DNA from: an uncultured bacterium
GTDB taxonomy: Bacteria; Krumholzibacteriota; Krumholzibacteriia; LZORAL124-64-63
DNA length: 64,000 nucleotides
NCBI GenBank assembly: GCA_963727525.1
Contig: CAVSGO010000006.1
Location: 46,906 to 110,905, forward strand
Direction: 5' to 3'
How positions within the stretch are numbered: the first letter of the stretch is position 1; every line of letters begins with the position of its first letter. A program made the position numbers and the translations under genes. Below, one piece after another: positions 39,382-57,423 of this stretch. Below the pieces are notes generated by a model, which did no database searches, was not told the origin of the DNA, and worked only from the letters and a program-made list of their open reading frames with translations.

Positions 39382-39408
39382 AATCGAGGAAGCGCGTGCT
39401 GGCCGTCG

Positions 39409-40086
39409 TCAGCCGGCGGCCAGCATCGCGCGCAACACCGTCTCGCGCTCGAGGATGATGCGGCCGCGGGCCAGCTTTACCGCGCGGGCGCGCTCGAAGT
39501 CCTTCAGCAGACGACTGATGACCTCGCGGGCCGAGCCGAGATCGGCCGCGATGCGTTCGTGGGTCACCGCCAGTTCGCGCACGGGTTCGCCATCGCCGAA
39601 GAAGCGCTTGCCGAGATACTCTGCGAGGCGGCGATCCATGCGCTTGAACGCCACCTCCTCCACCAGGGACATGATGCCCGCGATGTGCGTGGAGAGCAGC
39701 GTGAACACGTACGTACGCAGCACCGGGTTGAGGTCGATCCAGCGCCGGAAATCGGGACCGCGGAATGCCACGGCCTGCACGTCCTCCTCGACGACGGCCG
39801 ACGCCGGACACGGCTCGCCTGACAGGAGGCACGACAGGTTGAGCAGGCACACCTCGCCGGCCTGGACGTGGTAGAGGGTGATCTCGCGTCCGGTGTCACC
39901 CAGCTTGTAGACACGCAGCTTCCCCTGACCGACCAGGGCGATCACCTCGGAATGCCGTCCCTCGGAGGCGTAGTGCGTGCCCCGTTTGAGTTCGGTGCGG
40001 ACGCCGACCGCGAGCATCTCCTTCTGGAACGCCGGGTCGCAATCGCGGAAGAATGGGTAGTGCTCGAGGATCCGTCGCTTGTCCAT
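39409..40086 (-). CDS. Crp/Fnr-family transcriptional regulator (no N-terminal Fnr-type Cys cluster evident)
   Basis: cNMP-binding beta-roll (GQGKLRVYKLGDTGREITLYHVQAGEV) and C-terminal HTH (RIAADLGSAREVISRLLKDFERARAV). Confidence 0.8.
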   Translation of the reverse strand: MDKRRILEHYPFFRDCDPAFQKEMLAVGVRTELKRGTHYASEGRHSEVIALVGQGKLRVYKLGDTGREITLYHVQAGEVCLLNLSCLLSGEPCPASAVVEEDVQAVAFRGPDFRRWIDLNPVLRTYVFTLLSTHIAGIMSLVEEVAFKRMDRRLAEYLGKRFFGDGEPVRELAVTHERIAADLGSAREVISRLLKDFERARAVKLARGRIILERETVLRAMLAAG

Positions 40087-40300
40087 GGGCGTCGCTTTCG
40101 CATGGGCGTGAGGGGCGGCGGTCCCGGCGCTGTCGGCGGGCTGCAGGACGCAACCTGCGGTACCAACGGGTCGCGCCGGAATGAAGATATTCTATGTCAC
40201 GATTTGCGTTCCGGCAACGTACCTGGCGTGAGTGACCGGGATCACAGACGTCAGTCGCACCGATCCTGATCATGAAGACACCGGAGGTCGGAGGTGCCGT

Positions 40301-41413
40301 CTAATCTGGGTGGGGCGGACGGCGCTTCCGATCGTCCGGATCGAGATCCCCATCGTCCGTGAAGATACGCAGGTCCCGCGGGGCGACATACATGACGTCG
40401 CCGGCGACCACGTTCAGCTCCTGGAATCGCTCCGGCGCGACCGCGGCCTCGAACTGCTCGCCGGTCGGTGTCCGCAATGCGAGCCTCACCGTAGGCCCCG
40501 CCGCGTGGACCGCCATGACCTCGGCCCGCAGGCTCGGGACCATTGGGGGGTGCCTTTCCAGGGTCAGTTCGTGCGGCCTGATGAAGACACGCACCGCGCT
40601 CGCGGATCGCGCCTGGTGAGCCGGCGCGTCCAGCACGACACTCGCGAACATCACCTTGCCGTCGGCCACGCGACCCCGGAACACGTTGACGTCTCCAAGG
40701 AAGTTCATCACGAATTCCGTCGCCGGTTCGTGGAATACAGCGTCGGGCTTCCCGACCTGTTCGATGTGGCCCTCGTTCATCACGACGATGCGATCGGCCA
40801 CCTCGAGGGCTTCGTCCTGGTCGTGGGTGACGAAGACGCTGGTGACGTGGATATGTTCGTGCAACTGTCGCAACCAGATGCGAAGCTGCTTGCGCACGCG
40901 TGCGTCGAGCGCGCCGAAGGGTTCGTCGAGCAGCAGCACGCGCGGCTCCACGGCGAGCGCCCGCGCCAGGGCCACCCGCTGGCGCTGGCCTCCGGAGAGC
41001 TGAGCCGGGAAACGATCGGCCATGGGTTCGAGCTGAACGAGTTGTAACAACTCCTGCACGCGCGCCGCGATCGCGCGGCGCGAGGGCCGTTCGCCTCGTG
41101 GCCTCACTCGCAGGCCGAAGGCCACGTTCTCGAACACCGTCAGGTGCCGGAACAGCGCGTAATGCTGGAACACGAATCCCACGCGGCGCTCCTGCACGCG
41201 CCGCCCGGCGACGTCCTGATCGTGGAAACGGACGGGACCGCTGCCGGCATCGGGAAGCTCGAGGCCGGCGATGATACGCAGCAACGTGGTCTTGCCGGAG
41301 CCGGAGGGTCCGAGCAACGCGGTGAGCTCGCCGGCCGGCAGGGTGACGCTCACGTTGCGCAACGCCGTGAACGTGCCATAGGTCTTGCTGACGTGTTCGA
41401 TGGTGATGCCCAT
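40301..41413 (-). CDS. cysA: Sulfate/thiosulfate ABC transporter ATP-binding protein
   Basis: Start trimmed to ATG 41413 ([13 protein letters not shown]). Walker [10 protein letters not shown], signature [15 protein letters not shown], Walker B LLLDEP, C-terminal TOBE-like domain. Confidence 0.85.
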
Positions 41414-41414
41414 G

Positions 41415-42296
41415 TCATGCGACCTCCGTCGCGCCATCGTGGCTGTGGACCTGCGCGGCTTGCGGTTCACCGGTCTGCTGTTCCATCAGCGCCCTGGCGG
41501 CCAGCGTCGCCAGAGCCAGGAGCGCGAGGAGCGAAGCTGCCGCGAAGGCGGCGACGAAGTTGTACTCGTTGTAGAGGATTTCTACCTGAAGCGGCAGCGT
41601 AATGGTCTTGCCGCGAATGTGGCCGGAGACCACCGAGACCGCTCCGAACTCGCCCATGGCGCGCGCATTGCAGAGAATCACGCCATAGAGCAGGGCCCAC
41701 TTCACGTTGGGAATGGTCACCCGCCACAGCGTTTGCCAGCCCGAGGCTCCGAGCGTGAGCGCGGCTTCCTCGTCGTCGGTGCCCTGGGCCGCCATGAGCG
41801 GGATCAGCTCGCGTGCCACGTATGGCAGCGTCACGAAGACCGTCGCCATCACGATGCCGGGCACCGCAAAGATCACCTGCAGATCGTGCGCGGCCAGCCA
41901 CGGGCCCAACCAGCCATGAAGGCCGTACACCAGCACGTAGACGAGGCCCGAGATCACGGGCGAGATGGCTAGCGGCAGGTCGATCAAGGTCGTCAGCACG
42001 GTCTTGCCGCGGAACTCGAACTTGGCGACGGCCCACGCCGCCGCGAGGCCGAACACCAGGTTCACGGGCACGGCGATCGCCGCGACGAACAGCGTGAGTC
42101 GGATCGCGGCGCGTACGGCCGGGTCGCCGAAGCTCGCCACGTAGGCGCGCGCACCGCGACGCAGGGCCTCGGCGAAGACGGCGGCCAGGGGCGCCAGCAG
42201 GAAGACCGCGAGAATCACCAGCGTTGCCGCCAGGGCCAGCCGGCGCGCCCAGCGAGGATCGGCGATGGCGACGCGCGGCGTCGATGCAACGGGCAT
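41415..42296 (-). CDS. cysW: Sulfate ABC transporter permease
   Basis: Start trimmed to ATG 42296 (MPVASTPRV...). Permease EAA-like loop [16 protein letters not shown]. The upstream 230 codons of ORF 41415..42998 are antisense/read-through junk. Confidence 0.8.
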
Positions 42297-42298
42297 GA

Positions 42299-43132
42299 TC
42301 AGACTCTCCCGCGCCGGGCCCAGCGCTGTAGCAGATTGATCGTCAGCAACAGGCCGAACGAGACGGCAAGCAGCGCCACCGCGATCGCCGTGGCGCCCGC
42401 CTCGTCGTACTGCTCGAGCTTGGTCACGATCAGGAGCGGCGCGATCTCGGTACGCATGGGAAGATTGCCGCTGATGAAGACCACGGAACCGTACTCGCCG
42501 AGCGCCCGTGCCAGGGCCAGACCGAAGCCGGTGAGCACGGCCGGCGCAAGGCCGGGCAGTACGACATATCGCAGGGTCTGTCGACGCCGCGCGCCGAGGC
42601 TGGCGGCGGCCTCCTCCATTTCGGGATCGAGGTCCGCCACGGCAGGCTGGAGTGTCCGAACGACGAAAGGTAGACCAACGAAGGCGAGCGCGATCACCAC
42701 GCCCAGGGGCGAGAACGCTGCTCGGATGCCCACATGTGCCAGCAAGCCGCCGAGCCAGCCCGTGGGAGCATAGATGGTTGTGAGTGCGATCCCGGACACT
42801 GCCGTGGGCAGGGCGAAGGGCAGGTCGATGAGGGCGTCGAGGATCCGTTGGCCGGGAAAGCGATATCGCACGAGCGCCCACGCCACCACCGTACCGCACA
42901 GCGTGTCGACGAATGCGGCGATCAGGGCGCTGCCGATGCTGAGCCGGCACGCCGCGACGACCCGCGGCGCGGTCACGATGTCCCAGAATCCGGTCCAACC
43001 AAACGTCGCGGAGCGCAGAACCAGCGCCGCCAGCGGCACGAGGGCCACGACCGAGAGCGTGAACAGCGTGACACCGAGCGTCAGCTCGAAGCCGGGAAGC
43101 ACCGTATGCTTGCGCGCCAGGAGGGCCATCAT
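42299..43132 (-). CDS. cysT: Sulfate ABC transporter permease
   Basis: MMALLARKHTVLPGFELTLGVTLFTLSVVALVP... ; EAA-like loop SLGARRRQTLRYVVLP; six-TM profile. Confidence 0.8.
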   Translation of the reverse strand: MMALLARKHTVLPGFELTLGVTLFTLSVVALVPLAALVLRSATFGWTGFWDIVTAPRVVAACRLSIGSALIAAFVDTLCGTVVAWALVRYRFPGQRILDALIDLPFALPTAVSGIALTTIYAPTGWLGGLLAHVGIRAAFSPLGVVIALAFVGLPFVVRTLQPAVADLDPEMEEAAASLGARRRQTLRYVVLPGLAPAVLTGFGLALARALGEYGSVVFISGNLPMRTEIAPLLIVTKLEQYDEAGATAIAVALLAVSFGLLLTINLLQRWARRGRV

Positions 43133-43139
43133 GGTTGCC

Positions 43140-44226
43140 TCATCGCCGCGCGGCCATCATCGCATCGAAGACGCCGCCGTCGACGAAATGCGTCTGCTGC
43201 GCGACTGTCCAGCCACCGAAGACATCATCGACGCTCATGCGCTGCAACGCCGGGAAGCGCGCGAGATCGGCCGGGTCGGCATTCGTGGGATCGACCGGCC
43301 GGTAGTAATGCTTCGCTGCGAGCCGCTGAGCGACGGGCGAGTACAGCCACTGCAGGTAGGCCGTGGCCACCGCACGCGTGCCGTGCTTGTCGGCCCACGA
43401 ATCCACGAGGGCCACGGGCGGTTCCGCGAGGATGCTCACCGATGGCACGACGATGTCGACGCGGTCGGGGCCGAACTCGTTGACCGCGAGAAATGCCTCG
43501 TTCTCCCAGGTGAGGAGCACGTCGCCGATGCCGCGCGCCACGAATGTGCCGGTGGCGCCTCGAGCCCCCGAATCGAGCACCGGCACGTGGGCGTAGAGCG
43601 CGGCGACGAAGGCGCGCGCGCTGTCCTCGGCCGCGGCAACGGCGCCGGCGGCGGCCGTGTCGTGCAGCCGTGCGAGGTCGCCGAGCTGCCGCTGCAGCGC
43701 CGCCGCCCACGCGGCGAGGTAGATCCAGCGCGCACCCCCCGAGGTCTTGGGATTGGGGGTGATCACCGTCACGCCCGGCGCGAGCAGGTCTGCGCCAATC
43801 GTGGATGCCGCGGGGATTCCCCTTGCGCACCAGGAACACCACGGTCGAGGTGTACGGCGTGCTGCCGTTCGGTAGCCGCTGTCGCCAGTTCCCGGGCAAG
43901 GTGCCGGCATGTGAGGCGATCGCGTCGATATCGTGGGCCAGCGCCAGCGTCACGACGTCGGCTTCCAGCCCCTCGATCACGGCCCGCGCCTGGGCGCCGG
44001 AGCCGCCATGCGACATCGCGATCGTCACTGTCTGCCCGGTCTCCAGCCGCCAGTGCTCCGCGAACGTCGAGTTGACGTCCCTGTAGAATTCGCGGGTCGG
44101 ATCGTAGGAGACATTGAGCAGGGTGAGCGGCCTTTCCGATGCCGCGGCGGGCTCGCTCCGACGGCACCCGATCGGGAATGTCATGATGGCCAGCAGCGCC
44201 AGGATCATGAGGGATGCGCGGGACAT
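43140..44226 (-). pseudogene. sbp: Periplasmic sulfate/thiosulfate-binding protein (Sbp/CysP), split by a +1 frameshift near nt 43785-43803
   Basis: N-terminal part (ATG 44226, AGGAGG RBS, lipoprotein-like signal [21 protein letters not shown] ... [19 protein letters not shown]) lies in the ORF 43225..44364 frame. The C-terminal part ([29 protein letters not shown] ... LTWENEA ... FGGW) lies in the ORF 43140..43910 frame. Removing one base from tggCgcagacctg restores ...HDWADLLAPG.... Confidence 0.75.
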
Positions 44227-44263
44227 GTTGCCTCCTTCCGGTGGGTTCTCCAGCAGATAAGAG

Positions 44264-44278
44264 GCAAATGATGGGCCA
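44264..44278 (-). promoter_or_regulatory. Sigma-54-type promoter candidate TGGCCCatcatTTGC (GG-N10-GC) 38 nt upstream of sbp
   Basis: Minus-strand reading of 44278..44264 gives TGGCCC-N5-TTGC, which matches the TGGCAC-N5-TTGC consensus at the -24 GG, the -12 GC and the TTGC element. Confidence 0.45.
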
Positions 44279-44382
44279 ATCGCATGATGATATACAACTT
44301 GTTGCCGCACAATAAATAGCTTATTTAGTATGCCGTATACCGTGAAATGTGGTAGCTTTGCCATGAAATATCATGGTATGAT

Positions 44383-44400
44383 CCGTGATATATCACGGAG
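44383..44400. promoter_or_regulatory. Perfect 18-bp palindrome TCCGTGATATATCACGGA (with nearby CCATGA-aata-TCATGG, 44361-44376) in the divergent sbp / sigma-54-activator intergenic region; candidate activator (UAS) or autoregulatory site
   Basis: Seen directly. Lies about 105 bp upstream of the putative sigma-54 -24 element of sbp and abuts the RBS of the activator gene. Confidence 0.45.
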
Positions 44401-44410
44401 GAGGCCTGCC

Positions 44411-45976
44411 ATGGCGACCGATTCCTGGCTGCTCGACGTCTGGCGAGAAGCCTGCCAGCATCTTGACCTCGGCGAGCTGATCGCGCGGCTCGCCCCGCTC
44501 GTCAAATGCCGCTGGCCCGTGAGCGCGGTCGCCGTGGCGCGCCAGTCGCCCGACGCCAAGGTGATGGAACTTGTCGGCCCGCTTGGCGACGGCGACGTCG
44601 CGGCGGACCAGCGCCGCGAGCTGACGTCTGCCGATTCCCGCTTGCTCGGCGCCTGGCTTGCACAGGGGCAGACGGAGATCATCGCGAACGACGGCCGGGT
44701 GCCGTCCGGTGTGGCCACGCTTCTGCCCGCTGCGTACACCCGGGCCGGTACCGTCATCGCGCCGCTCACCTCGTCCGATGAGGCGCGCGGGCTACTCGTG
44801 GTCGTACCCGCGGATTCCGAGGCGCCGCACGGGGTGCTTCCGGCTGTCGAGCAGCTGCGGGCTCCGCTCGCCGCAGCCCTGGCGAACGACCGTCGGTTGC
44901 GTGAGCTGGTGGATCTGCGCCGGGCTGCCGAAGCCGATCGGCGATCCTTGCTCACGCGTCTCGGCCGCGACGAGTTGCTCGAGACCATCGTCGGCGCCGA
45001 CGGCGGCCTGCGTGGTGTGATGGCACGCGTCGCCATGGTCGCGGCGTCGGACATACCGGTGCTGATCCTGGGCGAGACCGGTGCCGGCAAGGAGGTCGTG
45101 GCGCGCGCCGTGCACGCGCGGTCGCGACGCGCGCACGGGCCGTTCACGCGCGTGAACTGCGGTGCCATCCCGCCAGAGCTGGTGGATTCCGAACTCTTTG
45201 GCCACGAGAAGGGGAGCTTCACCGGCGCCATGTCCCGCCGCCGCGGCTGGTTCGAGCGCTCGGACCAGGGCACCCTGTTGCTCGACGAGGTCGGCGAACT
45301 GCCGAAAGCGGCGCAGGTGCGGTTGCTACGAGTGATCCAGGACGGCATGCTCCAGCGTGTGGGGGGGGAGTCGATGCTCCGGGTCGACGTGCGGATCATC
45401 GCAGCCACCCATGCCGATCTTGCCGCCATGGTGCAGCGCGGCGAGTTTCGCGAGGACCTGTGGTACCGGCTCGCTGTTTTTCCGCTGGTGTTGCCTCCCC
45501 TGCGTGAACGGACCGAGGATATTCCCGACCTCGTTGCCATGCTCGCGCGACGCGCCTCGCGACGATTCGGCCTCAGGCCGCAGCGACCGACGGCTGCCGA
45601 TCTCGCCCTGCTTGCGGCCTATCCGTGGCCGGGAAACGTCCGGGAACTGGGTTCGGTAATCGATCGTGCCGCCATCCTGGGCGATGGCAAGTGTCTGGAT
45701 ATCGCGAAGGCGCTCGGCAGCGGCGGTCCCGGCATGCACGCGGGGGCATGGGCGTCGTCGCCACGTGCGACGAGCGCGACGCCCGAGGCGCTCGCGTCGC
45801 TGGACGCGGCGATGGCTGCGCACATTCGCGCCGCCCTCATTGCCTGCGATGGTCGTATCGAGGGGGCGCAGGGCGCGGCCGTTCTCCTGTGCATCAACCC
45901 GCACACGCTGCGCGCGCGCATGCGAAAGCTCGGTCTCGAGTGGGCCCGATATCGGGTCCATCGATCCACAGGCTGA
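44411..45976 (+). CDS. Sigma-54-dependent transcriptional activator (bacterial enhancer-binding protein): N-terminal GAF-like sensor, AAA+ sigma-54 interaction domain, C-terminal HTH
   Basis: ATG 44411 with GGAGGAGG RBS. Walker A GETGAGKE, sigma-54 contact motif GSFTGA, RVDVRIIAATH, PWPGNVREL, C-terminal HTH (AQGAAVLLCINPHTLRARMRKLGL). Confidence 0.85.
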   Translation: MATDSWLLDVWREACQHLDLGELIARLAPLVKCRWPVSAVAVARQSPDAKVMELVGPLGDGDVAADQRRELTSADSRLLGAWLAQGQTEIIANDGRVPSGVATLLPAAYTRAGTVIAPLTSSDEARGLLVVVPADSEAPHGVLPAVEQLRAPLAAALANDRRLRELVDLRRAAEADRRSLLTRLGRDELLETIVGADGGLRGVMARVAMVAASDIPVLILGETGAGKEVVARAVHARSRRAHGPFTRVNCGAIPPELVDSELFGHEKGSFTGAMSRRRGWFERSDQGTLLLDEVGELPKAAQVRLLRVIQDGMLQRVGGESMLRVDVRIIAATHADLAAMVQRGEFREDLWYRLAVFPLVLPPLRERTEDIPDLVAMLARRASRRFGLRPQRPTAADLALLAAYPWPGNVRELGSVIDRAAILGDGKCLDIAKALGSGGPGMHAGAWASSPRATSATPEALASLDAAMAAHIRAALIACDGRIEGAQGAAVLLCINPHTLRARMRKLGLEWARYRVHRSTG

Positions 45977-46044
45977 ACTCCCATGTTTTTTGTAAGTGAT
46001 GTATGTCTTTATATTTACACGAATCGGCACATGCGATTTTATTT

Positions 46045-46058
46045 GTTAAATTTTTAAC
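46045..46058. promoter_or_regulatory. AT-rich palindrome GTTAAA-tt-TTTAAC within the AT-rich promoter island (45980-46124) upstream of the cytochrome-rnf gene string
   Basis: Perfect 6-bp arms with a 2-nt spacer. The island also contains TTTACA-N17-TTTTAT (46012-46040) as a possible sigma-70-like promoter. Confidence 0.25.
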
Positions 46059-46124
46059 CTATGACTAGGTTACATCACGAGCACGTTCCCTGAACACAGG
46101 CCGCACACGATGCGAGGTGGTCTC

Positions 46125-46598
46125 ATGACTTCTGACACGCCCTCCAATGGCGACCACTGGGAATGCATGGTCTGGGAGAAGCACCGGTACAATGACCGTA
46201 CTGTCATCAAATCCGGTTCCTATCTCCGCGCATCCTGTCCCTACTGCGCGGAATGTCTGATTGCCGAGGGCATGATCCGCCTCGCGTCCGTCTCGCGAGA
46301 CGGGCGCAAGGGCTGGGTGGAACTGAGTCCGTACCTCAACGTCTTCGAGCGGCGCAGCGACATCCACCTTTCCGAGACCGCCGACTTTTCGGACCTGGTC
46401 TGTCCCCACTGCCACCGCTCGCTCAGGGTCCCGGAGCGCAAGTGCGGACGCGGCGATGCGAGCGTCGCCGTGGTGATGGTGGGCATCTCCACGATCAACG
46501 TGCCCTTCTACTTCTGCATGCAGACGGGCTGCACATGGCACCTCATCGATCCAGAGGACGAGCACCGGATCATCCTGGACGACAGCCTGGAATGGTGA
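46125..46598 (+). CDS. Cys-rich hypothetical protein (paired CxxC zinc-ribbon-like motifs, including CPHCH) (157 aa)
   Basis: ATG 46125 with GAGGTGG RBS. CPYCAEC ... CPHCHRSL ... CMQTGC. No signal peptide. First gene after the AT-rich island. Confidence 0.6.
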   Translation: MTSDTPSNGDHWECMVWEKHRYNDRTVIKSGSYLRASCPYCAECLIAEGMIRLASVSRDGRKGWVELSPYLNVFERRSDIHLSETADFSDLVCPHCHRSLRVPERKCGRGDASVAVVMVGISTINVPFYFCMQTGCTWHLIDPEDEHRIILDDSLEW

Positions 46599-46602
46599 CG
46601 CG

Positions 46603-47256
46603 ATGCCCTTCGCTGGACGCGATGATCATGGTTCGCCGGTTCGCGGTCACGCTCGCAGCAATGCGGTGCTGATCGTCGTTGCGGTCGTGGCCGCCGCCGT
46701 CGCCGCCGGCGGATACTTGCGGGGGGCGCCGCCGCCGACGACTGATCGCATCTACCTGCGCAGCATCGGCGGCGCGGTTGTCTTCGGACATGCGGAGCAC
46801 CAGGCTCGGGTCGCAAGCTGCCTGCCCTGCCACCATGAACTGATCCTGGGCGATCCGATCGCCTGCGCCACGTGCCACGATGCGGATGTCACGTTCGATC
46901 TGGCGTCGCATGACGAACTCGTGCAGATCGATGGCCACACCTGCGACGGCTGTCACGCGAGCGCAGATGCCACGGGTGCGCGCAACTGCCGCGCCTGCCA
47001 TGCCTCTGAGGTCGAAGGCGCAACGAGCGTGCATGCCTGCAGCGATTGCCACGATGATGCGACATACGGGCCGGCGACGTTGCCGCACGCGAGTCTCGTG
47101 ACCATCGAAGGACACAGTTGCGATGGGTGCCACACACCTCGCGCCCTTGCAGAAGCGTACCACGCGACCTGCAACGGCTGTCACCTGCGAGCCGCCCCGC
47201 AGCGATTCGCTGCAGCCGATGGTGGCGCGACGTGCGCAGCGTGCCACCTGAAGTGA
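46603..47256 (+). CDS. Membrane-anchored octahaem c-type cytochrome (cytochrome c3-like) immediately upstream of rnfC
   Basis: N-terminal TM/signal-anchor AVLIVVAVVAAAVAAGG. Eight CxxCH motifs (CLPCH, CATCH, CDGCH, CRACH, CSDCH, CDGCH, CNGCH, CAACH) in 217 aa. Confidence 0.85.
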   Translation: MPFAGRDDHGSPVRGHARSNAVLIVVAVVAAAVAAGGYLRGAPPPTTDRIYLRSIGGAVVFGHAEHQARVASCLPCHHELILGDPIACATCHDADVTFDLASHDELVQIDGHTCDGCHASADATGARNCRACHASEVEGATSVHACSDCHDDATYGPATLPHASLVTIEGHSCDGCHTPRALAEAYHATCNGCHLRAAPQRFAAADGGATCAACHLK

Positions 47257-47272
47257 AACGCGGAGGTCGATC

Positions 47273-48577
47273 GTGAGCTTGCTCAACCTGTTCAAGACAC
47301 CCGCGGCTCGCGTCCCCCGCGTGGCGCTCGGGTCCACGGCGATCGTCGACCTGCCCGATCCCGACCACGTGGTGATCCCCCTCGAGTATCCCGGTCAGAT
47401 TCGCTTTCGACCCGCGGTCCAGGCCGGAGACTCCGTGGCGCGCGGGCAGGTGATCGGCCGTTCCGAACTGGGCAACTGCGTGCACGCCTCGATCAGCGGG
47501 CTGATCAAGGAGATCCGGACAATCTGGTCGGCTAGTGGCTACCACGTTCCGGCGGTCGTCATCACCCGCGGCGACGCACCCGCGCTCACACCCACCGAGT
47601 GCCTCGGACAGTGCGGGCTCGATCTGGCCTCGGCGACACGCATCGCATTGCTCAAAGCGGGCGGTGTGATTTCCCCGTGGACCACGCCGGGCCAGGACCA
47701 CCGAGAAGCGGACATCGGCGAGTTCCCGGACATCCAGCACATCGTCGTGAAGGGGCTGAACGAGGAGCCCACGATCGTAAATTTCGAGCTGCTCATGGTG
47801 GAGGGAGCCGGCAGGCTGAAGGACGCGTTGCAACGGCTGTGCGATTTCGTGCCCCGCGCCACGATATGGTTGACGGTGGCGCGCCGCCTCGAGCCGTGGG
47901 CGCGCGAGACCTTCGAGGACCTCGTACGCGTGGTGGGCCTCGCCGAGGAGTATCGCCATCGCATCGAGCGGATGGTGGTGCCGCGCGTGACGGGCGTGGC
48001 CATTGCGAATACCGAGGCGTTCCGGTCGCGCGGTGTCGCCGTGCTCTCCGTCGAACACCTGCTGACCGCGGCCGATGCGCTTGCCGGCAAGCCATTCACG
48101 CACAAGACGGCGACGATAGCCGGAGGCCTTCTGCGCGAGCCGGTGACCGTGCGCACACCGGTCGGAACGACGATCGGGACCTTGCTCGCGAGCCAGGGCA
48201 TGAGCGCCGCCGACTACGGTCGTCTGATCGTCGGCGGCCCGATGCGCGGCATGACGCAGTATACCGACGAGACGCCGTTGAGCAAGTTCCAGCACGGCGT
48301 ATTGGTGATGGCAGCGTCCGAGCTGCCGGCGGAGCTGAACCGTACCTGTGTGAACTGCGGCCGCTGCACGCGCGCCTGTCCCGTGCACCTGCAGGTGCAC
48401 CTCATCGGGCGTTGCGTGGAGTACAACCTGCTTGCCGAAGTGCCTTCGCGCCACCCAGAGGCCTGTCACGAGTGCGGGCTCTGCGCCTTCGTCTGTCCGG
48501 CTCATCGGCCCCTGGTGCAGATGATGAAGATCGCCAAGCGTGCGGGCGTGACCGAGACGAGCGAGGCGGTGGCATGA
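47273..48577 (+). CDS. rnfC: Rnf electron-transport complex subunit C
   Basis: GTG 47273 with GGAGG RBS. RnfC_N-like N-terminus, IVGGPMRG, C-terminal 2x[4Fe-4S] (CVNCGRCTRACP, CHECGLCAFVCP). Not evaluated: no canonical GGxGFP FMN/NADH motif was seen by eye. Confidence 0.8.
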   Translation: MSLLNLFKTPAARVPRVALGSTAIVDLPDPDHVVIPLEYPGQIRFRPAVQAGDSVARGQVIGRSELGNCVHASISGLIKEIRTIWSASGYHVPAVVITRGDAPALTPTECLGQCGLDLASATRIALLKAGGVISPWTTPGQDHREADIGEFPDIQHIVVKGLNEEPTIVNFELLMVEGAGRLKDALQRLCDFVPRATIWLTVARRLEPWARETFEDLVRVVGLAEEYRHRIERMVVPRVTGVAIANTEAFRSRGVAVLSVEHLLTAADALAGKPFTHKTATIAGGLLREPVTVRTPVGTTIGTLLASQGMSAADYGRLIVGGPMRGMTQYTDETPLSKFQHGVLVMAASELPAELNRTCVNCGRCTRACPVHLQVHLIGRCVEYNLLAEVPSRHPEACHECGLCAFVCPAHRPLVQMMKIAKRAGVTETSEAVA

Positions 48578-49608
48578 TCCCGACGATCATCGACACGCGG
48601 CCGGCGACCGACCAGGCGCCCAGGAACGATCGCGACGCTCAGCACGACCACAAGCTGAGCGTAGCCGAGGGGCCGCACTGGCACGACGGCAGTTCGCTCA
48701 CGCGGACACAGATTCTCTGGCTTATGGCGCTGCTTCCCGCGGGCGTGGCGAGCGGCGTCATGCTCGGCGCACCGGCGTTGCGGGTGATGGCGCTGGCGGT
48801 CGCGGCCGCGATCGCCTTCGATGCCCTCGCCAACCGCGTGATGTCCCTGCCGGATGCCACCTCGAACGGCAGCAGCATCACTCTCGGCCTGCTGCTCGCC
48901 TTTCTCCTGCCGGTCGACGCGCCGTGGTGGTTGGTGGTCGTGGGCTGTTTCCTGACCATCGTGATCGGCAAGAAGCTCTTCGGTGGCTGGGGCGGCTATC
49001 CCGTGCATCCGGTGGCGCTGAGCTACGCGATGCTCGTCGTGTCGTGGCCAGCGCGGATGGACGTCACGGCGTCGCTCGTGCACGCGACCTGGCGCGCCGC
49101 ACCGGTGGAACCTCTACGGCTCGTCAAGACCCTCGGCGCGGCCGCCGCCGCGCAATACGACCTCCACGACCTCCTGCTCGGCGTGCAGACCGCTGGCGTG
49201 GGCGACGCGATGGTGCTGTGGCTTCTCGCGGGCGGTGTCTTCCTATTCCTCGTCCGGCAGGTGCCCTGGCAGATTCCGATCGGTGTCGTCGCCGGCGTGG
49301 TGCTCTGCGCCTGGCTGCTCGGCATGGCCGACCCCGGGCGCACGGCCACGCCGGCCTTCCAGCTCCTGGCGGGCGGTACGGTGTTCATGGCGTTCTTTCT
49401 GGCGCCGGAGCACACGACATCGCCGGTCAACCCGTGGCCGATGTTCCTCTACGGGTGGTTGGGCGGCGTGTTGCTCGTGCTGATCCGCGCGTTCTCGAGT
49501 CACATCGACGGCACGGTATTCGCCGTGCTGCTGATGAACGTCGCCTGTCCGCTGCTCGACCGCCTGGGGCCCCGGATCGTCGGCCTGGAGGTGCCACGCG
49601 ATGCGTGA
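48574..49608 (+). CDS. rnfD: Rnf complex subunit D (NqrB-like integral membrane subunit)
   Basis: ATG overlaps the rnfC stop (ATGA). Polytopic membrane profile with the conserved GGWGGYPVHPVAL-type segment and the FMN-attachment-region context (TSPVNPWP). Confidence 0.8.
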   Translation: MIPTIIDTRPATDQAPRNDRDAQHDHKLSVAEGPHWHDGSSLTRTQILWLMALLPAGVASGVMLGAPALRVMALAVAAAIAFDALANRVMSLPDATSNGSSITLGLLLAFLLPVDAPWWLVVVGCFLTIVIGKKLFGGWGGYPVHPVALSYAMLVVSWPARMDVTASLVHATWRAAPVEPLRLVKTLGAAAAAQYDLHDLLLGVQTAGVGDAMVLWLLAGGVFLFLVRQVPWQIPIGVVAGVVLCAWLLGMADPGRTATPAFQLLAGGTVFMAFFLAPEHTTSPVNPWPMFLYGWLGGVLLVLIRAFSSHIDGTVFAVLLMNVACPLLDRLGPRIVGLEVPRDA

Positions 49609-50206
49609 AATCGGTCGCCTGGTGCTGGTGCTCGGGCTCATCGGCGTGGTGAGCGCGTCGTCGCTGGCATACGTGCGCACGACCCTCGCTCCCCGGATCG
49701 AGCGGCAGAACGATTTCTACGTGCGCGGGCCGGCGCTCGAACGGCTGTTCCAGCAGCCGGCACGCACTCTCCTGGGCAACAAGGTGACGCTGGATGCGGC
49801 CGGCACCCGCTACCTGATCTTCTTTCGGCGAGTGGACGGCGACGTCACGGGTCTCGCCGTGGAAGCGCCTGGCCACGGCGGCTACGCCGGCGACGTGGTG
49901 ATGATGGTCGGACTCGATCTTGTCACCGAACGGATGCTCGGCGTGGAGATCGTCTCGCACGGCGAGACCCCGGGCGTGGGTGCCCGGATCGAGAGACCGA
50001 CATTCCGCAAGCAGTGGCGAGGCTTGCCGATGGACGACACGCTGAATCTGCGCACTGCGGGCGGCAACATCGACGCGATCAGCGGTGCCACCTTCTCGTC
50101 GCGTGCCATGATCGACGGCACCAACCAGGTCGATGGCCCTGATGCGGGATCACAGGGCCGACATCCTGGCGCGCATAGCCGGGAACTAGACGGAGAGCGG
50201 TCATGA
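49601..50206 (+). CDS. rnfG: Rnf complex subunit G (FMN-binding); last ~20 codons possibly frameshifted
   Basis: N-terminal TM anchor ([19 protein letters not shown]), FMN-binding-domain motif [14 protein letters not shown]. From about nt 50130 the +1 frame reads ...[18 protein letters not shown] (protein-like, RnfG-like C-terminus), whereas the called frame reads [23 protein letters not shown]. Confidence 0.7.
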
Positions 50207-50815
50207 CGTTCAGGCAGGCACTCACTCACGGGTTCTGGCGAGACCTGCCGCCTTTCCGGCTGGTGCTTGGCCTCTGCCCGGCTCTGGCCGTCACCTCGGC
50301 CGCGCCCAACGGGCTGGGCATGGGGTTGGCGGTGACCTTCGTGCTGATCTTCTCCAACATGTTCATCTCGCTGCTGCGCCGGGTGATCCCCGAGCGAGGT
50401 ACGGATCGCCAGCTACATCGTGGTGATCGCCAGCCTCGTGGTGCTCGTGGAACTGGGCATGAAGGCGTTCTTCTTCTCGCTCTCCCAGCAGTTGGGGATC
50501 TACATCCCGCTCATCGTCGTGAACTGCATCCTGCTGGGGCGCGCCGAGGCGTTCGCCTCGCGCAATCCTGTGCTGCTGTCCGTGGCCGACGGGGTGAGCG
50601 TGGGGCTGGGCTACACGGTCTCGCTCACGTTGATGGCGTCGGTGCGCGAGGTCCTGGGCGCCGGCACGTGGTTCGGCCATACAGTGTTCGGACATGGTTT
50701 CGAGCCCTTCGGTTTCATGGTCAGGGCGCCGGGGGCGTTCCTCTGCCTGGGCCTGCTCCTCGGACTGATGAATGCCTGGAGCCGCAAGCGCGGCGAGTTC
50801 TTCGTGCAGACGTGA
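50203..50815 (+). pseudogene. rnfE: Rnf complex subunit E, interrupted by a +1 frameshift at about nt 50392-50404
   Basis: ATG 50203 (GGAGAG RBS): [64 protein letters not shown], then junk in-frame. The conserved continuation (E)[43 protein letters not shown]... is in the next frame (ORF 50420..50815). Removing one G from gagcgaGgtacgg joins them. Confidence 0.8.
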
Positions 50816-50829
50816 CGGGAGACCGTGCC

Positions 50830-51405
50830 ATGAACCTGATTCTGCTGACCGTGAGTGCGATCTTCGTACACAACATCCTGCTGGCGCAATACCTGGGCAA
50901 CTGCCCGTTCTGCGGCGTATCGAAGAGGATCGAAACCGCGACCGGCATGGCGGTGGCCGTGGTATTCGTGACCACTCTGGCGTCGATCTTCACCTGGGGC
51001 ACGTATCACCAGATTCTCGTGCCATTGCACCTGGAGTACCTGCAAACGCTGGTCTTCATCCTGGTGATCGCGGCCCTCGTGCAGTTCGTGGAGATCTTCC
51101 TCAAGAAGAAGAGCCGTTCCCTCTACAACGCGCTCGGGATCTACCTGCCACTGATCACCACGAACTGCGCCGTGCTGGGGATCGCGTTGCTCAATATCAA
51201 GAACAACTTCGGCTTCGTGCACATGGTGGTGTATTCCGCCGCCAGCTCGGCGGGATTCGGCCTTGCCATCGTGCTGTTCGCCGGGGTGCGCGAGCGCCTC
51301 TTCCTGTCGCCGGTGCCGCGGTCCATGCAGGGGACGGCGATCGCCCTCGTCACGGCCGGCATCATGTCGCTCGCGTTCCTGGGGTTCGCGGGCATGGTCG
51401 AGTAG
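50830..51405 (+). CDS. rnfA: Rnf complex subunit A
   Basis: ATG 50830. [27 protein letters not shown]...[19 protein letters not shown] (RnfA/RnfE family signature). Confidence 0.85.
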
Positions 51406-51420
51406 CCACGGAGACGCACC

Positions 51421-53511
51421 ATGTGGATCCCCGCTGTCGTCCTCGGAGGTATCGCCGCGATCGCGGCGGTGGTGCTGGGCATTGCGGCGCGCGTCTTCCA
51501 CGTTCAGGAAGATCCGCGGATCAAGGCCGTCAATGACCTGCTCGCCGGCGCCAACTGCGGGGGCTGCGGCTACGCGGGCTGCGTCGCCTGTGCGGAGGCG
51601 ATCGTCCGCGGCGAGGTGGAGCCCAACGCATGCGTGGTCGGTCAGGCCGATGTGGCGCGCGCCGTCGCCTCGTTTCTGGGCATGGAACTGGCCGACACGG
51701 AGCCGCAGATCGCGTGCCCCGACTGCCAGGGAGGGTTGCGCGCCTCGCGCAAGTACGCCTACGCCGGCTTTGACGACTGCCGCGCTGCTATGCTCTATTT
51801 CCACGGCCCCGTGTCATGCCAGCACGGATGCCTCGGGCTGGGCACCTGCATCCGCGCCTGCAAGTTCGGGGCGATCACGATGGGGCCCGCCGGGTTGCCC
51901 CTCTTCGATCCTACGCGCTGCGTGGCCTGCGGCGCCTGCGCTCGCGCTTGCCCCAAGGGCATCATCTCGATCATTTCCGAGACGACCAAGATCCTGCACT
52001 GGAATCGCTACACCGAATGCCTGGCCCCGTGCCGGCAGAAGTGTCCGGCGCAGATCAACATCCCCAAGTACATCGAGCACCTGAAGCGCGGCGAGTTCGC
52101 CGAGGCGTTGCTGACGATCAAGGAGAGCAACCCGCTACCGCTCTCCACGGGCCGGGTATGCCCCGAGCCGTGTGCCCTGGCCTGCCGGCGACATATCGGC
52201 GACGAACCGGTAGCGATCAACTATCTCAAGCGCTTCGCGGCCGACTGGGAAATGAGCTCGGGGCGCCGCCTGCACATCCCTGTGCTTCCGGATACCGGCC
52301 GGAAGGTCGCGGTGATCGGAGGCGGGCCAGCCGGACTGTCCGCGGCCTACTTCCTGCGCCGCCTCGGCCACGCCGTCACCATCTATGATCAGATGCCGGC
52401 GCTCGGCGGCATGCTGCGCTACGGCATTCCGGAGTACCGTCTTCCCAAGCGTGTTCTCGACTGGGAGATCGAGGGCATCCTGGCACTCGGCATCCAGGCC
52501 GCGACCGGTGTCGCTCTGGGCAAGGACTTCACCATCGATTTCCTGCGCGCCAATGGTCACGACGCGATCTTCCTCGCCGTGGGTGCATGGCGCGACAATG
52601 GCCTTGGCCTCGAGGACGACGGCGTCTCTGGTATCGTGAGCGGCATCGAGTTGCTGCGGCGCATGCAGACGTCCGCGCCGATCCCCTTACGTGGACACGT
52701 GATCGTGATCGGCGGCGGCAACACCGCCATCGATGCCGCGCGCACCGCCCTGCGAGCCGGCGCGAGTCGGGTGAGCATCGTGTATCGCCGTTCGCGCGAC
52801 GAGATGCCGGCGAATCCGGCCGAGATCGTGGCCGCTGACGAGGAGGGCGTGCGATACCGCTTCCTCAGCGCGCCCAACCGCATCGTATCCGACGCCGGCC
52901 ACGTCACCGGGCTCGAGATTCTGCGCATGGAGCTGGGCGAACCCGATCCCAGCGGTCGGCGAAGGCCCGTGGCGATCGCGGGATCGGAAGAGACGATCCC
53001 GTGCGACCTGATCATCGAGGCCGTGGGCCAGATGCCCGACATCGATTTCCTTGCGGTGCCGGGCATGCCGTCGTTGCCGACAACGCGCTGGAACACGATC
53101 GACGCCAGCGAGGACACGCTACAGACCGATGTGCCCTACATCTTCACCGGTGGTGATTGCTTCACGGGACCCTCGCTCATGGTCAACGCGATCGGTGCTG
53201 GTCGGTATGCGGCACGATCGATCCACTATTACGTGACCGAGGGCAGGATTCCGCCAATCGAGCACCGACAGACCGAACTCATCAGCGACTCGCTCTACGA
53301 GTCCATCGCGGGTGTGGCACCCCGCCCTCGGGTGCACGAGCCCGTCGTGACGCTGCAGGACCGCCTCGGCACTTTCAATGAGGTCGAGGGCACGATCGAC
53401 GAAGAGGATGCCCTCTACGAGGCCGCGCGTTGCCTGCATTGCGGCACCTACTGCTATGACCACGATCTGGAGCAGGAACGTCTGCGGCAGGAGACCGAGC
53501 AGCCGGCGTGA
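51421..53511 (+). CDS. rnfB: RnfB (N-terminal membrane anchor + Fe-S/ferredoxin domains) fused to a GltD/NfnB-like NAD(P)H-dependent FAD oxidoreductase (696 aa)
   Basis: GGAGA RBS. MWIPAVVLGGIAAIAAVVLGIAA, NCGGCGYAGC (RnfB cluster), two 4Fe-4S ferredoxin motifs (CIRACKFGAI / CVACGACARACP); then KVAVIGGGPAGLSAAYFL (FAD GxGxxG) ... VIVIGGGNTAIDAARTA (NAD(P) GxGxxA) ... TGGDC as in glutamate-synthase small-subunit-like flavoproteins. Confidence 0.8.
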   Translation: MWIPAVVLGGIAAIAAVVLGIAARVFHVQEDPRIKAVNDLLAGANCGGCGYAGCVACAEAIVRGEVEPNACVVGQADVARAVASFLGMELADTEPQIACPDCQGGLRASRKYAYAGFDDCRAAMLYFHGPVSCQHGCLGLGTCIRACKFGAITMGPAGLPLFDPTRCVACGACARACPKGIISIISETTKILHWNRYTECLAPCRQKCPAQINIPKYIEHLKRGEFAEALLTIKESNPLPLSTGRVCPEPCALACRRHIGDEPVAINYLKRFAADWEMSSGRRLHIPVLPDTGRKVAVIGGGPAGLSAAYFLRRLGHAVTIYDQMPALGGMLRYGIPEYRLPKRVLDWEIEGILALGIQAATGVALGKDFTIDFLRANGHDAIFLAVGAWRDNGLGLEDDGVSGIVSGIELLRRMQTSAPIPLRGHVIVIGGGNTAIDAARTALRAGASRVSIVYRRSRDEMPANPAEIVAADEEGVRYRFLSAPNRIVSDAGHVTGLEILRMELGEPDPSGRRRPVAIAGSEETIPCDLIIEAVGQMPDIDFLAVPGMPSLPTTRWNTIDASEDTLQTDVPYIFTGGDCFTGPSLMVNAIGAGRYAARSIHYYVTEGRIPPIEHRQTELISDSLYESIAGVAPRPRVHEPVVTLQDRLGTFNEVEGTIDEEDALYEAARCLHCGTYCYDHDLEQERLRQETEQPA

Positions 53512-53541
53512 TCCGGCCGCCATGCAGAAAGGTACGGCAAG

Positions 53542-53949
53542 GTGTATCTACGGACCGCGCGAAATCGCCTGCAGTTCGTGCTCTGGCTCGTCGCGGTGCA
53601 CTCTGCCGCCGTTGCCGTGGGACTCATGGCGCATCCCGTAGCGCTGCTGGAACGCCTCGGCTTCGCCGCCGTGGGCGAGCCGTTCTTCCCGACCCAGGGC
53701 GGCGTCTTCCATCTGGTCATGGCGGTAGGCTACGCGATGGCTGCCTGGTCGCCGGATCGCAACCGCTGCCTGGCCGTGTTCTCGATCGTGGTCAAGGTTC
53801 TGGCCACGCTCTTTCTGCTCGTCTATTGGTTCGTGATCTCTCGTCTACCGGCGGTGCTGCTTTCCGGCCTGGTCGACGGCGCCATGGCGGTAATGATCGC
53901 GCTCGCGTACGCGGCATGGCGACGCGAGCAAGCACGCGAGGTGTCGTGA
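53542..53949 (+). CDS. Small hydrophobic membrane protein of unknown function (135 aa)
   Basis: GTG 53542. Four predicted TM helices (FVLWLVAVHSAAVAVGLMA..., VFHLVMAVGYAMAAW..., VFSIVVKVLATLFLLVYWFVI..., VDGAMAVMIALAYAAW). Stop overlaps the next start (GTGATGG). Confidence 0.5.
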   Translation: MYLRTARNRLQFVLWLVAVHSAAVAVGLMAHPVALLERLGFAAVGEPFFPTQGGVFHLVMAVGYAMAAWSPDRNRCLAVFSIVVKVLATLFLLVYWFVISRLPAVLLSGLVDGAMAVMIALAYAAWRREQAREVS

Positions 53950-55619
53950 TGGACACGAAGCTGCCCGGAATCGTCGTGACCGGCGCCTCCGGCTTCATCG
54001 GTCGGCACTTCCTGGCCAGTGCGGCCGGACGCTACCGGCTGTTCTGTCTGGCGCGCCGCTCGCGCGAGGAGTCGCAGATTCCCGCCTACGAAAACCTGCA
54101 TTGGTCGCAGGTTGACGTTGCGCGCTGGGACGACCTACGCGAGGTCGTGCATTGCGTGAAGAGCCATGGAGGCGCGTCTGCCGTGCTTCATCTCGCCGGC
54201 TACTACGACTTCCACAACATGGAGCACCCCGAATACGAACGCACGAACGTGAAGGGGACCCGCAACGTTCTCAAACTGGCGCGTCAGCTCGGTGTCGGTC
54301 GCTTCATCTTCGCCAGCTCCCTGGCCGCGTGCCGGTTTCCGCCGGCGGGCCTGGCGATCACCGAGGATTCGCCGGCCGACGCCGGATTCGCCTATGCCCG
54401 GAGCAAGCGCGACGCGGAGGAACTCATCTGCGCGCATACCCAATGGATCCCAGCGTCCATCGTGCGCCTCGCTGCGGTCTATAGCGACTGGTGCGAGTAT
54501 CCACCGCTCTATGTCTTCCTGAAGACGTGGCTATCGGACGGCTGGAACGCCTGCATTCTCGGGGGGCGCGGCGAATCGGCGGTGCCGTACATTCACGTCC
54601 AGGATCTGGTGAAGCTCTTTCATGTGATCCTCGAGCGCAGCGCTACGCTGCCGCGACTGGCCGTGTACAACGCCAGCCCGAATTCAGTGGCCAGCCATCG
54701 GGATCTGTTCCAGATGGCGACGCGTGCATACTACGGCACGGACATCCAGCCGCGATGCGTGCCGCGCGTACTGGCGGTACCGGGCGTGTTCCTGCGCTGG
54801 TGGCTCGGCAAGGCCCGAGGGGCGGCGCCGTTCGAGGCGCCCTGGATGATGCGGTATGTGGACGCGCAGCTCCGGGTCGATGCCAACCGCACCCATGCGG
54901 CGCTCGATTGGCGCCCGGCGCCGCGCATGGACGTCGTACGACGGCTACTGGTGATGATCGAGAATATGAAGACGCACTCCGAAATATGGCATCAGCGCAA
55001 TGAGGCGGCTCTACGGCGCGTGGCATACCGTCCCAATCTCGTCATCGCCCGGATCCTCGACGACCTGCGCGAGGAGTTGATCGCCCGGATCGCCGAACGG
55101 GTGAATTCACCGGATCTGGCCTCGCAATTCGCCGGATATCACGACATGGAGCGCGAGACGCTCCGCTGGTACCTCGCGTTGCTCTACCAGGTGCTCGTGG
55201 CGTCCGTGCGCACGCGCGACCGGCAGCTCATCCGGCACTACGCCCAGGTCATCGCCACGAGACGCCAGCAGGAGGGTTTCTCGTCCGACGAAGTGCGCGA
55301 CTTCCTGATCCTGGTGGGCAAGATCGTGACTGAGACGTTGCGCACGCATGCCGAGCTTGTGGGGCACGAGCAGCCCATTCACGACAATGTCGGTCTGGCG
55401 TTCCAGCTCGCGGTCGACGGCATCGAGGACGTCTACGAAGCTCACGAGGCGCTCAATCCGGAATTGATTGCGCGGGGGCAGGGCTTCGCGGAACTGGGCT
55501 CGAACCGCGACCTCGAGCATATGGTTCACCAGCTCCGCGATCTCTGTGGCGATGTGTTCCCGACGCCCGGTGTCCACGCGAACACGGCCACGACGGATCG
55601 TCCCGTCATCGGACCATGA
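53949..55619 (+). CDS. NAD-dependent epimerase/dehydratase (extended SDR) family protein with a ~250-aa C-terminal helical extension (556 aa)
   Basis: ATG 53949 (MDTKLPGIVVTGASGFIGRHF = GxxGxxG Rossmann). YARSKRDAEE (YxxxK). The upstream part of ORF 53508..55619 is read-through. Confidence 0.8.
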   Translation: MDTKLPGIVVTGASGFIGRHFLASAAGRYRLFCLARRSREESQIPAYENLHWSQVDVARWDDLREVVHCVKSHGGASAVLHLAGYYDFHNMEHPEYERTNVKGTRNVLKLARQLGVGRFIFASSLAACRFPPAGLAITEDSPADAGFAYARSKRDAEELICAHTQWIPASIVRLAAVYSDWCEYPPLYVFLKTWLSDGWNACILGGRGESAVPYIHVQDLVKLFHVILERSATLPRLAVYNASPNSVASHRDLFQMATRAYYGTDIQPRCVPRVLAVPGVFLRWWLGKARGAAPFEAPWMMRYVDAQLRVDANRTHAALDWRPAPRMDVVRRLLVMIENMKTHSEIWHQRNEAALRRVAYRPNLVIARILDDLREELIARIAERVNSPDLASQFAGYHDMERETLRWYLALLYQVLVASVRTRDRQLIRHYAQVIATRRQQEGFSSDEVRDFLILVGKIVTETLRTHAELVGHEQPIHDNVGLAFQLAVDGIEDVYEAHEALNPELIARGQGFAELGSNRDLEHMVHQLRDLCGDVFPTPGVHANTATTDRPVIGP

Positions 55620-57078
55620 CCATCTTGCGCGTGAGCACGTGGCCCGCCTGCTCGAGGCGGTACACGTAGACCCCGGCCGGCATCGCGGCGCCTTGGTCGT
55701 CGGTGCCGGCCCACATCGTCACGTGGTGGCCGCCGTCGCGTTCGGCGTCGACGAGGGTCCGTATCCGTCGGCCGCGCTGGTCGAAGATGGCAAGTGTGAC
55801 GTGATCTCCGCCGCGCCGCACGTCGTACCCGATCGTGGTCTGGGGATTGAAGGGGTTGGGAATGTTCTGCTCGAGGGCGATGGCGTTGGGCACGCTGTCG
55901 ATGTTGACCGTGGTGCCCGTGATGCGGTAGACCGTATCGCCGCCGACGTCGACCACGTACAGTTCGCCGAGCCCATCCTGGCCGATCGACGCGAGCCCGC
56001 CGAAGCCGCCCGGCGGCGTGATCTGGTCGGTCCAGTCCGTGACCGGTCCGAATCCGCTCGCTGCCGACCACGCGCCACTCCAGATCTGACCGCTGCAGTA
56101 ATCGGCGAAAAAATACTGGCCGGCAAGCGCCGGTAAGGCGTCGCCGCGATAGACGTAGCCGCCTGAGATGGAGCATCGAAACGGGGTGCCGCCGTGCGAG
56201 TACTCGTGGACCGGCAACACCAGGGTGCCGTCGTTGCAATCACTCGGCGGATCGTAGCAACTCGTGCCTTCCATCAGGTGCCAACCGTAGTTCTCACCAC
56301 CGCTCGAGCTGGCGGGTTGGACGTCGATTTCCTCCAGCTCACCCTGGCCCACGTCGGCGATGTAGAGATCTCCGGTCTGTCGATCGAAGGAGAAGCACCA
56401 GGGGTTGCGCAGGCCGTAGGCCCAGATCTCGTCACGCCCGGGCTGGCCCACCAGGGGATTCGAGGGCGGATTGGTGTAGCCGGGTGCCATGGCCACGTTG
56501 ATGCGCAGGATCTTGCCCAGCAACAGGTCGACATTCTGCGCCCTGTTCTGCGGGTCGCCGGCTGAGCCACCGTCGCCCAGGCCGATGTAGAGCATGCCGT
56601 CCGGCCCGAACTGCAGGCACCCGCCGTTGTGGTTGCTGTACGGCTGTGTCACCGAGATCAGGTGCTCGGCGCTCGTGGGGTCGGCGACGTCGGGATCGGC
56701 GCTGACATGGTAGCGTACGATCTGCGTGTCGCCGTTGACGTCGGTGTAGTCGACGTAGAAGCGACCCGAGATGTCATAGTCGGGCGCGAAGGCGAGCCCC
56801 AGGAGTCCACGTTCGCTCCCCGTGCCGACCAGATCGGAGATGTCGAGGAAGACATCGAGTCGGTTGCCGCCCTGGTCGTAGACCTCGATACGTCCACCCT
56901 GCCGCACGACGAAGAGGCGAGGATCGCCATCCGGCGCGACGAGCCGCACGGGCTGAGCGATGTTCGTGATCACCGGTTCAACCGCAAGGACGGCCGCAGC
57001 CAACTGCGGGCGCATGGTTATCGCAACGAGGATGATAACGAGCGCGGCCAGTACGGGCCGCGAGAATGTGCGTAGCAT
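55606..57078 (-). CDS. Secreted PQQ-dependent sugar dehydrogenase (soluble glucose/sorbosone dehydrogenase family beta-propeller) with a C-terminal FlgD-Ig-like/T9SS-like sorting domain (490 aa)
   Basis: GGAGG RBS. Signal peptide. GLLGLAFAPDY, HNGGCLQFGPDGMLYIGLGDGG, YGLRNPWCFSFD, ENYGWHLMEG (sGDH-family motifs). C-terminus QNIPNPFNPQTTIGYDVRRGGDHVTLAIFDQRGRRIRTL...GVYVYRLEQAGHVLTRKMVMVR. Confidence 0.85.
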   Translation of the reverse strand: MLRTFSRPVLAALVIILVAITMRPQLAAAVLAVEPVITNIAQPVRLVAPDGDPRLFVVRQGGRIEVYDQGGNRLDVFLDISDLVGTGSERGLLGLAFAPDYDISGRFYVDYTDVNGDTQIVRYHVSADPDVADPTSAEHLISVTQPYSNHNGGCLQFGPDGMLYIGLGDGGSAGDPQNRAQNVDLLLGKILRINVAMAPGYTNPPSNPLVGQPGRDEIWAYGLRNPWCFSFDRQTGDLYIADVGQGELEEIDVQPASSSGGENYGWHLMEGTSCYDPPSDCNDGTLVLPVHEYSHGGTPFRCSISGGYVYRGDALPALAGQYFFADYCSGQIWSGAWSAASGFGPVTDWTDQITPPGGFGGLASIGQDGLGELYVVDVGGDTVYRITGTTVNIDSVPNAIALEQNIPNPFNPQTTIGYDVRRGGDHVTLAIFDQRGRRIRTLVDAERDGGHHVTMWAGTDDQGAAMPAGVYVYRLEQAGHVLTRKMVMVR

Positions 57079-57229
57079 GCCGTTCCTCCGGATTTCGGTC
57101 GAGATTCCGTCAATACGACGATCGTCAAGTCAGATATTTATACAGGATATTACTCGTCATGTATGGCGCCAGGCAAGTTTTTGACCGGTGGCGGGAAGAT
57201 CTTGCCCGATCACGATCAGAACACGCCAT

Positions 57230-57247: not shown

Positions 57248-57423
57248 ATCTCTCCCCGTCCTGGTCGGCACAATTCGAGGAGCGAGTAGAGCGCGAAACC
57301 TCTACCTGTATTACGAAACGGAAAAAGACGACTTTGGTCATGATAACTGATTGCAATATCGCTCGTTACAGCAATATTTTCTCAGTAATTTCTTCATTTT
57401 CTTCTTTCTCCGAGCGATACTAT

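Follow-up and report, generated by a model that had tools for sequence, protein, structure and literature searches.

Three conserved genes, sbp, rnfG, and rnfE, are each broken by a shift of reading frame within the 64-kb stretch of DNA analysed here (hereafter, the window), which is part of a 378-kb metagenome-assembled contig from an uncultured bacterium. An annotator who took the shifts at face value would conclude that the organism has no sulfate import and no working Rnf complex. The question that the locus raises is whether the shifts are genuine loss-of-function alleles, sites at which the genes are recoded during expression, or errors in the deposited sequence, and, if they are errors, whether a sequence motif common to the three sites accounts for them, as the initial annotation had proposed.

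The break in sbp

On the minus strand, sbp runs from an ATG at 44226 (with a GGAGG 5 nt upstream) to a stop codon at 43140-43142, and translation of this interval yields two reading frames. The first (frame A; 43795-44226) opens with MSRASLM... and extends to the Trp codon of ...GIHDW, past which it turns to Arg/Gly-rich nonsense, while the second (frame B; 43140-43790) carries the remainder of the protein to the stop codon. The Pfam profile SBP_bac_11 is split accordingly, with its positions 9-102 matched in frame A and 80-227 in frame B. A single uninterrupted reading frame for sbp is absent in the window; rather, the two frames join at 43791-43794, a four-base slot (c-g-c-a in the minus-strand sense) that lies between the Trp codon (43795-43797) and the Asp codon (43788-43790), i.e., between ...IHDW and DLLAPGV..., where one codon is expected. 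Since a single residue separates the W from the DL in every one of the 188 homologues in which the junction could be parsed, and the window has four bases there, the lesion is a +1 insertion. Removing the g restores a Pro, as in the closest homologue (P0001; IHDWPDLL), and removing the first c instead gives an Ala. The repaired protein matches the family model NF008022 over positions 20-327 of 329 (438.6 bits against a cut-off of 288) and TIGR00971 over its full length (401.3 bits; cut-off 155.5). The initial annotation had stated that the two termini of Sbp lie in different frames, that deleting one base restores continuity, and that the fault falls within 43785-43803, and all of this is borne out by the full-length match to NF008022 after repair and by the position of the slot. 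In contrast to the repaired gene, the annotation in the source record is limited to a 210-aa fragment with a GTG start at 43772.

Apart from the extra base, the gene shows no sign of decay: it has no stops and no second shift, and conservation is equal on both sides of the junction (71-81% overall), with identity to the closest homologues of 71-77% for the N-terminal half and 74-81% for the C-terminal half. Further, the two halves share the same GC3 (0.875), compared to 0.52 for the wrong-frame continuation. That is, one inserted base accounts for the break, and the sulfate-binding protein gene is otherwise undamaged.

The rest of the transporter is undamaged as well. The sbp-cysT-cysW-cysA operon occupies the minus strand from 44226 down to 40301, and cysT (42299-43132, minus strand), cysW (41415-42296, minus strand), and cysA (40301-41413, minus strand) are all intact, with scores above the cut-offs of TIGR02139, TIGR02140, and TIGR00968, respectively. 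The gene order is the same as that of the E. coli type Sbp/CysP + CysTWA ABC transporter, and the repaired Sbp, CysT, CysW, and CysA all exceed the cut-offs of the corresponding family models. The differences from the E. coli type are that the Sbp gene of the window is split in two frames, that its best homologue is just 78% identical, and that its N-terminus, judging from the sequence, may be a lipoprotein signal ending in Cys. The intergenic region from which sbp and a sigma-54 activator gene (44411-45976) diverge contains two 16-nt palindromes, CCATGAAATATCATGG (44361-44376) and CCGTGATATATCACGG (44383-44398), whose starts are 22 nt apart and which likely form a regulator binding site. A sulfate-ester utilisation cluster, 20 kb from the sulfate transporter (20517-24084, plus strand), comprises adjacent genes for a formylglycine-generating enzyme-like protein, a sulfatase, and a radical-SAM/SPASM protein with a SEC-C motif, the last of which is a possible anaerobic sulfatase maturase.

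Several routes were taken to find independent DNA that spans the sbp insertion. The Logan contigs recovered for the region (see below) stop at 42831 and resume at 45200, so that 42832-45199 is uncovered. Exact-product look-ups with the 333-aa, 256-aa, and 210-aa Sbp fragments, as well as with three repaired versions of the protein (carrying Ala, Pro, or Arg at the junction), returned no match on contigs other than the source contig, a result that carries no information on alleles confined to the window, and homology searches of protein collections with the full repaired Sbp and with a 143-aa junction segment returned nothing above 78% identity. A DNA pattern scan over the site in JGI metagenomes gave 0 matches, and protein-guided scans for Sbp reached at best 67% in GTDB genomes (a Phycisphaerae MAG) and 75% in JGI metagenomes, with no close relative in either collection. 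A literature search on the sequencing run that supplied the Logan contigs (ERR11594398) likewise found nothing.

The search with the frameshifted 333-aa product did match frameshifted Sbp calls of other organisms. Dozens of such products (P0241-P0273 and others), encoded on long contigs in ENA/NCBI, are frameshifted at varied positions, often with several shifts per gene, and several of them go in and out of frame; one product from another organism (P0249) shifts right after ...IHDW, as the window does. These calls indicate widespread indel errors in deposited long-contig assemblies. It is important to note, however, that we read them as a sign that such breaks are common and not as evidence on the sbp site of the window itself.

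The rnf operon and an independent assembly

The rnfCDGEAB operon lies on the plus strand at 47273-53511, and its rnfC, rnfD, rnfA, and rnfB genes are all intact. The window version of rnfG (49601-50206, plus strand) encodes 201 aa, of which the last 24 residues are aberrant although the FMN_bind domain is kept; with one base fewer, the gene would stop at 50187-50189 and encode 195 aa. The rnfE gene (50203-50815, plus strand) is split, with frame 1 running to ...LLRRVIP and frame 2 running from SEVRIASY... to the stop at 50813-50815, and the Pfam Rnf-Nqr profile is matched over positions 3-62 in one frame and 61-173 in the next.

For these two genes, independent sequence was available in the form of Logan contigs of run ERR11594398, which we reached by exact-product look-ups; the comparison is one between assemblies. 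The longest of these contigs (L001; 11,226 bp) corresponds to window positions 45200-56427 at 99.93% identity, with six substitutions and two one-base gaps, and these two gaps, the only ones, are the frameshift bases of rnfG and rnfE. In rnfG, the window carries an extra A at 50133 (plus strand; GGTCG[A]TGG) that is missing from L001, precisely where the initial annotation had located the shift. In rnfE, the window has a CCCC run at 50388-50391 (plus strand) where L001 has CCC (compare GATCCCCGAG in the window with GATCCCGAG in L001), that is, one extra C. The shift had previously been assigned to an AGGTA context; the indel is instead the fourth C of this run, 6 nt upstream of the AGGT that had been cited. 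The RnfE of L001 is intact (203 aa) and matches the TIGR01948 profile over positions 2-194 of 196 with 226.6 bits (cut-off 213.4), while its RnfG (195 aa) matches the NF045876 profile over positions 1-186 of 190 and can be aligned with solved RnfG chains as far as residues 179-185, thereby passing residue 178, where the shift occurs in the window. Therefore, for rnfG and rnfE, the earlier preference for error over independent pseudogenisation gains support from an assembly that is free of both extra bases and encodes both proteins intact. By exact look-ups, the 201-aa RnfG product of the window, like the 210-aa Sbp fragment, was found on the source contig only, a single contig of 378,181 bp in NCBI and ENA that also encodes the other proteins of the window.

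In-frame alleles of this kind bear on the reading that the genes are expressed as written, with ribosomal +1 frameshifting or transcriptional slippage restoring the frame. The rnfE site (AUC CCC G) does provide a proline CCC-N context, in which +1 slips can occur. Nonetheless, the same population has rnfG and rnfE alleles that are in frame, the 188 homologues parsed at the sbp junction are all in frame, the frameshifted Sbp products of other assemblies shift at differing positions, and the sequence shows no recoding signal, since a stop or an obviously slow codon is missing from the shift, as is any long A/T run on which slippage could occur. Programmed recoding is effectively ruled out by the in-frame alleles together with the in-frame homologues, and we assign it next to no probability.

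Three further Logan contigs from the same run (39408-40936, 40973-42831 [L075], and 59951-64000) are 100% identical to the window over 7,438 bp, and hence the run samples the same population. In total, 18.7 kb could be compared, with eight differences, so that, apart from the indels, the window is about 0.03% off its sister assembly. Six of these eight differences fall within a patch of only 383 bp (50133-50515, plus strand), which holds the two indels and the substitutions at 50217, 50346, 50417, and 50515, three of them synonymous and one an Ile/Val exchange; the density of differences in the patch is about 50 times the background. Counted over the whole comparison, the six substitutions comprise four synonymous changes, a Phe/Tyr exchange in rnfD, and an Ile/Val exchange in rnfE. 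Because four are synonymous and two conservative, a second haplotype is present at 50133-50515; that is, the pattern is one of real strain variation under purifying selection, with at least two haplotypes where the rnf indels sit. The Logan contigs end at 40936/40973, 42831, 45200, 56427, and 59951, with breaks around sbp. The clustering within the patch and these breaks near sbp provide a hint of strain-level heterogeneity in the stretch.

A few additional features of the operon deserve mention. RnfB (51421-53511, plus strand; 696 aa) combines in one chain an N-terminal RnfB Fe-S part (PF04060; NF005503 profile positions 7-262) and a GltD-like NAD(P)-binding flavoprotein module (NF009410, 500.9 bits; Fer4_20 + Pyr_redox_2), and this domain composition suggests that the B subunit has a pyridine-nucleotide site of its own. 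Directly upstream of rnfC (46125-47256, plus strand) are a 157-aa ORF without a Pfam match and a gene for a 217-aa cytochrome c7-like protein, and the best model for RnfG is the Desulfovibrio-type NF045876 (RnfG_DVU2794). The rnf operon may thus be a cytochrome-associated one here.

The shared motif and the clustering of the shifts

The initial annotation had held that the three sites share a CAGGTC/AGGT context and that this points to a systematic sequencing or assembly error mode. Such a mode would be, for example, a context-dependent sequencing or base-calling error at a methylated motif. What speaks for this reading is that, on the plus strand, CAGGTC stands immediately 5' of the inserted base in both sbp and rnfG, within 1-4 nt; the copy adjoining the sbp insertion is at 43785-43790. 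However, the hexamer is common to these two sites only. The rnfE site lacks it and shares no 5-mer with either of the others; its indel is in a C-run, and the AGGT that had been cited is 6 nt away. The offset of the inserted base after the hexamer also differs, being +2 in rnfG and +3 or +4 in sbp for the Pro or Ala repair, respectively (+1 to +4 overall). Further, neither sequence is rare in the window (G+C content of 66.9%): CAGGTC/GACCTG occurs in 66 copies, or about one per 970 nt, of which the copy at sbp is simply one, and AGGT/ACCT occurs in 473. The hexamer is not enriched at discrepancies either; of the 20 CAGGTC/GACCTG copies covered by the independent contigs, 19 are without a discrepancy, and one is next to a discrepancy. 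Finally, in 30-45% of simulated triples of random sites, the three had a hexamer in common within ±8 to 10 nt, meaning that a coincidence of this sort is to be expected rather often. Hence, the shared motif is no more than chance, neither the common context nor the error mode tied to it is supported by the comparison, and we regard a context-dependent error at CAGGTC/AGGT, which could still apply to two of the sites but has no statistical backing, as very unlikely.

The clustering of the three shifts is by itself only mildly unusual, since three random points would fall within 6.6 kb of 64 kb with a probability of about 0.03, and this value should be read with the fact that breaks elsewhere in the window were detected via the splitting of Pfam domains alone. 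That screen revealed no further split domains across the window among about 45 ORFs, of which only those with Pfam matches were informative. Rfam and tRNA scans of the window returned no matches.

Origin of the insertions and other features of the window

We favor the hypothesis that the insertions in sbp, rnfG, and rnfE are consensus errors, introduced during assembly or polishing in a strain-mixed stretch of the metagenome-assembled contig, and we give this reading a probability of roughly two in three. Under this hypothesis, the reads behind the consensus would have come from two or more closely related strains, or from a minor haplotype with thin coverage, and such a consensus would have left single extra bases in the three genes, which would then be neither true pseudogenes nor motif-driven errors. 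The organism would, in that case, possess both working sulfate uptake and a working Rnf complex. The rnf indels share the 383-bp variant patch, and it is for this reason that we point to strain mixture or local consensus quality, and not to sequence context, as the probable source. All three lesions are +1 insertions; the one in rnfE is a change of homopolymer length (CCC to CCCC), and those in sbp and rnfG are outside homopolymers. For 18.7 kb with six substitutions, two indels that shift the frame are far too many for natural variation in conserved coding DNA, but a consensus drawn from mixed strains or from a thinly covered haplotype would be expected to show such a ratio.

Errors of this kind have been documented. 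Nearby allelic variants in collapsed assemblies lead to misalignment and to INDEL errors that are seen as frameshifts (PMC8445201), and indel errors that pseudogenise genes are a known failure mode of long-read assemblies, with deletions usually dominating among nanopore homopolymer errors (PMC12007338). As in the known collapsed-haplotype and long-read errors, single-base indels split conserved genes here; two of the window indels likewise sit among nearby allelic variants, as described for collapsed haplotypes (PMC8445201), and, as with long-read indel errors, one lesion falls in a short homopolymer and an independent assembly is in frame. Unlike the nanopore homopolymer pattern, however, all three lesions here are insertions, and two of the three are not associated with a homopolymer.

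At sbp, the shift is read as the same kind of error by analogy to the rnf sites and because it is a single +1 insertion without other decay. Thus, while the three +1 insertions, the intact independent rnfG and rnfE, the co-location of indels with substitutions, and the absence of other decay were each observed directly, we infer that the extra bases are errors and not alleles of a second strain, and that sbp probably behaves like the two rnf sites.

Alternatively, the insertions might be real, with the window faithfully reporting a strain of this population in which sbp, rnfG, and rnfE have recently become loss-of-function alleles. The window does represent a distinct haplotype, whose substitutions relative to the independent contig resemble true strain variation, two of the insertions are outside homopolymers, and, once rnfE was broken, a second hit in rnfG would have been neutral. 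Very young bacterial pseudogenes, moreover, have the same appearance, with one disabling frameshift as the sole lesion of a conserved gene. In contrast to such pseudogenes, however, there are three lesions in 6.6 kb here, and two of them are missing from the sister assembly; no lesion was found to be shared by related genomes or assemblies, and L001 has both rnfG and rnfE intact. For real alleles, a ratio of three frameshifts to six substitutions is also implausible in DNA that is otherwise identical, and random mutation would not predict that both rnf indels fall in one 383-bp variant patch. In addition, the synonymous or conservative nature of the substitutions in rnfE and rnfD is an argument for ongoing selection, none of the three genes shows further decay, and the remainder of both operons is intact. 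On balance, we consider real alleles unlikely. If the insertions were nonetheless genuine, they would represent fresh knock-outs of sbp and of two Rnf subunits in a strain that coexists with an intact-allele strain, and the population would then be segregating for the loss of sulfate uptake and of ferredoxin:NAD+ energy coupling.

The consensus-error reading implies an ordinary assembly-quality issue and no new biology, but one with practical consequences, since a metabolic reconstruction would inherit a false loss of sulfate import and of Rnf. Therefore, for future studies, we recommend that broken conserved genes in metagenome-assembled contigs be checked against reads or a second assembly. 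The informative signal in the present case was the co-location with strain variants, not a sequence motif.

Two other features of the window are worth reporting. A run of multihaem cytochrome genes at 57351-63814 (plus strand) looks like an extracellular electron-transfer module; it includes a CxxCH-rich ORF (57351-58457), a possible outer-membrane barrel of 522 aa without a Pfam match (58470-60038), an MtrC/MtrF-like cytochrome of 341 aa, and a fusion of a multihaem protein with cytochrome b561 (873 to 899 aa). Finally, many large secreted proteins, including subtilases, a glucose/sorbosone dehydrogenase, and Ig-domain proteins, end in a FlgD_ig-type C-terminal domain (1951-5115, 13871-15916, 24119-27982, 27972-29444, and 55609-57129; one weak Por_Secre_tail match was also seen), and this domain may be a lineage-specific sorting tag.
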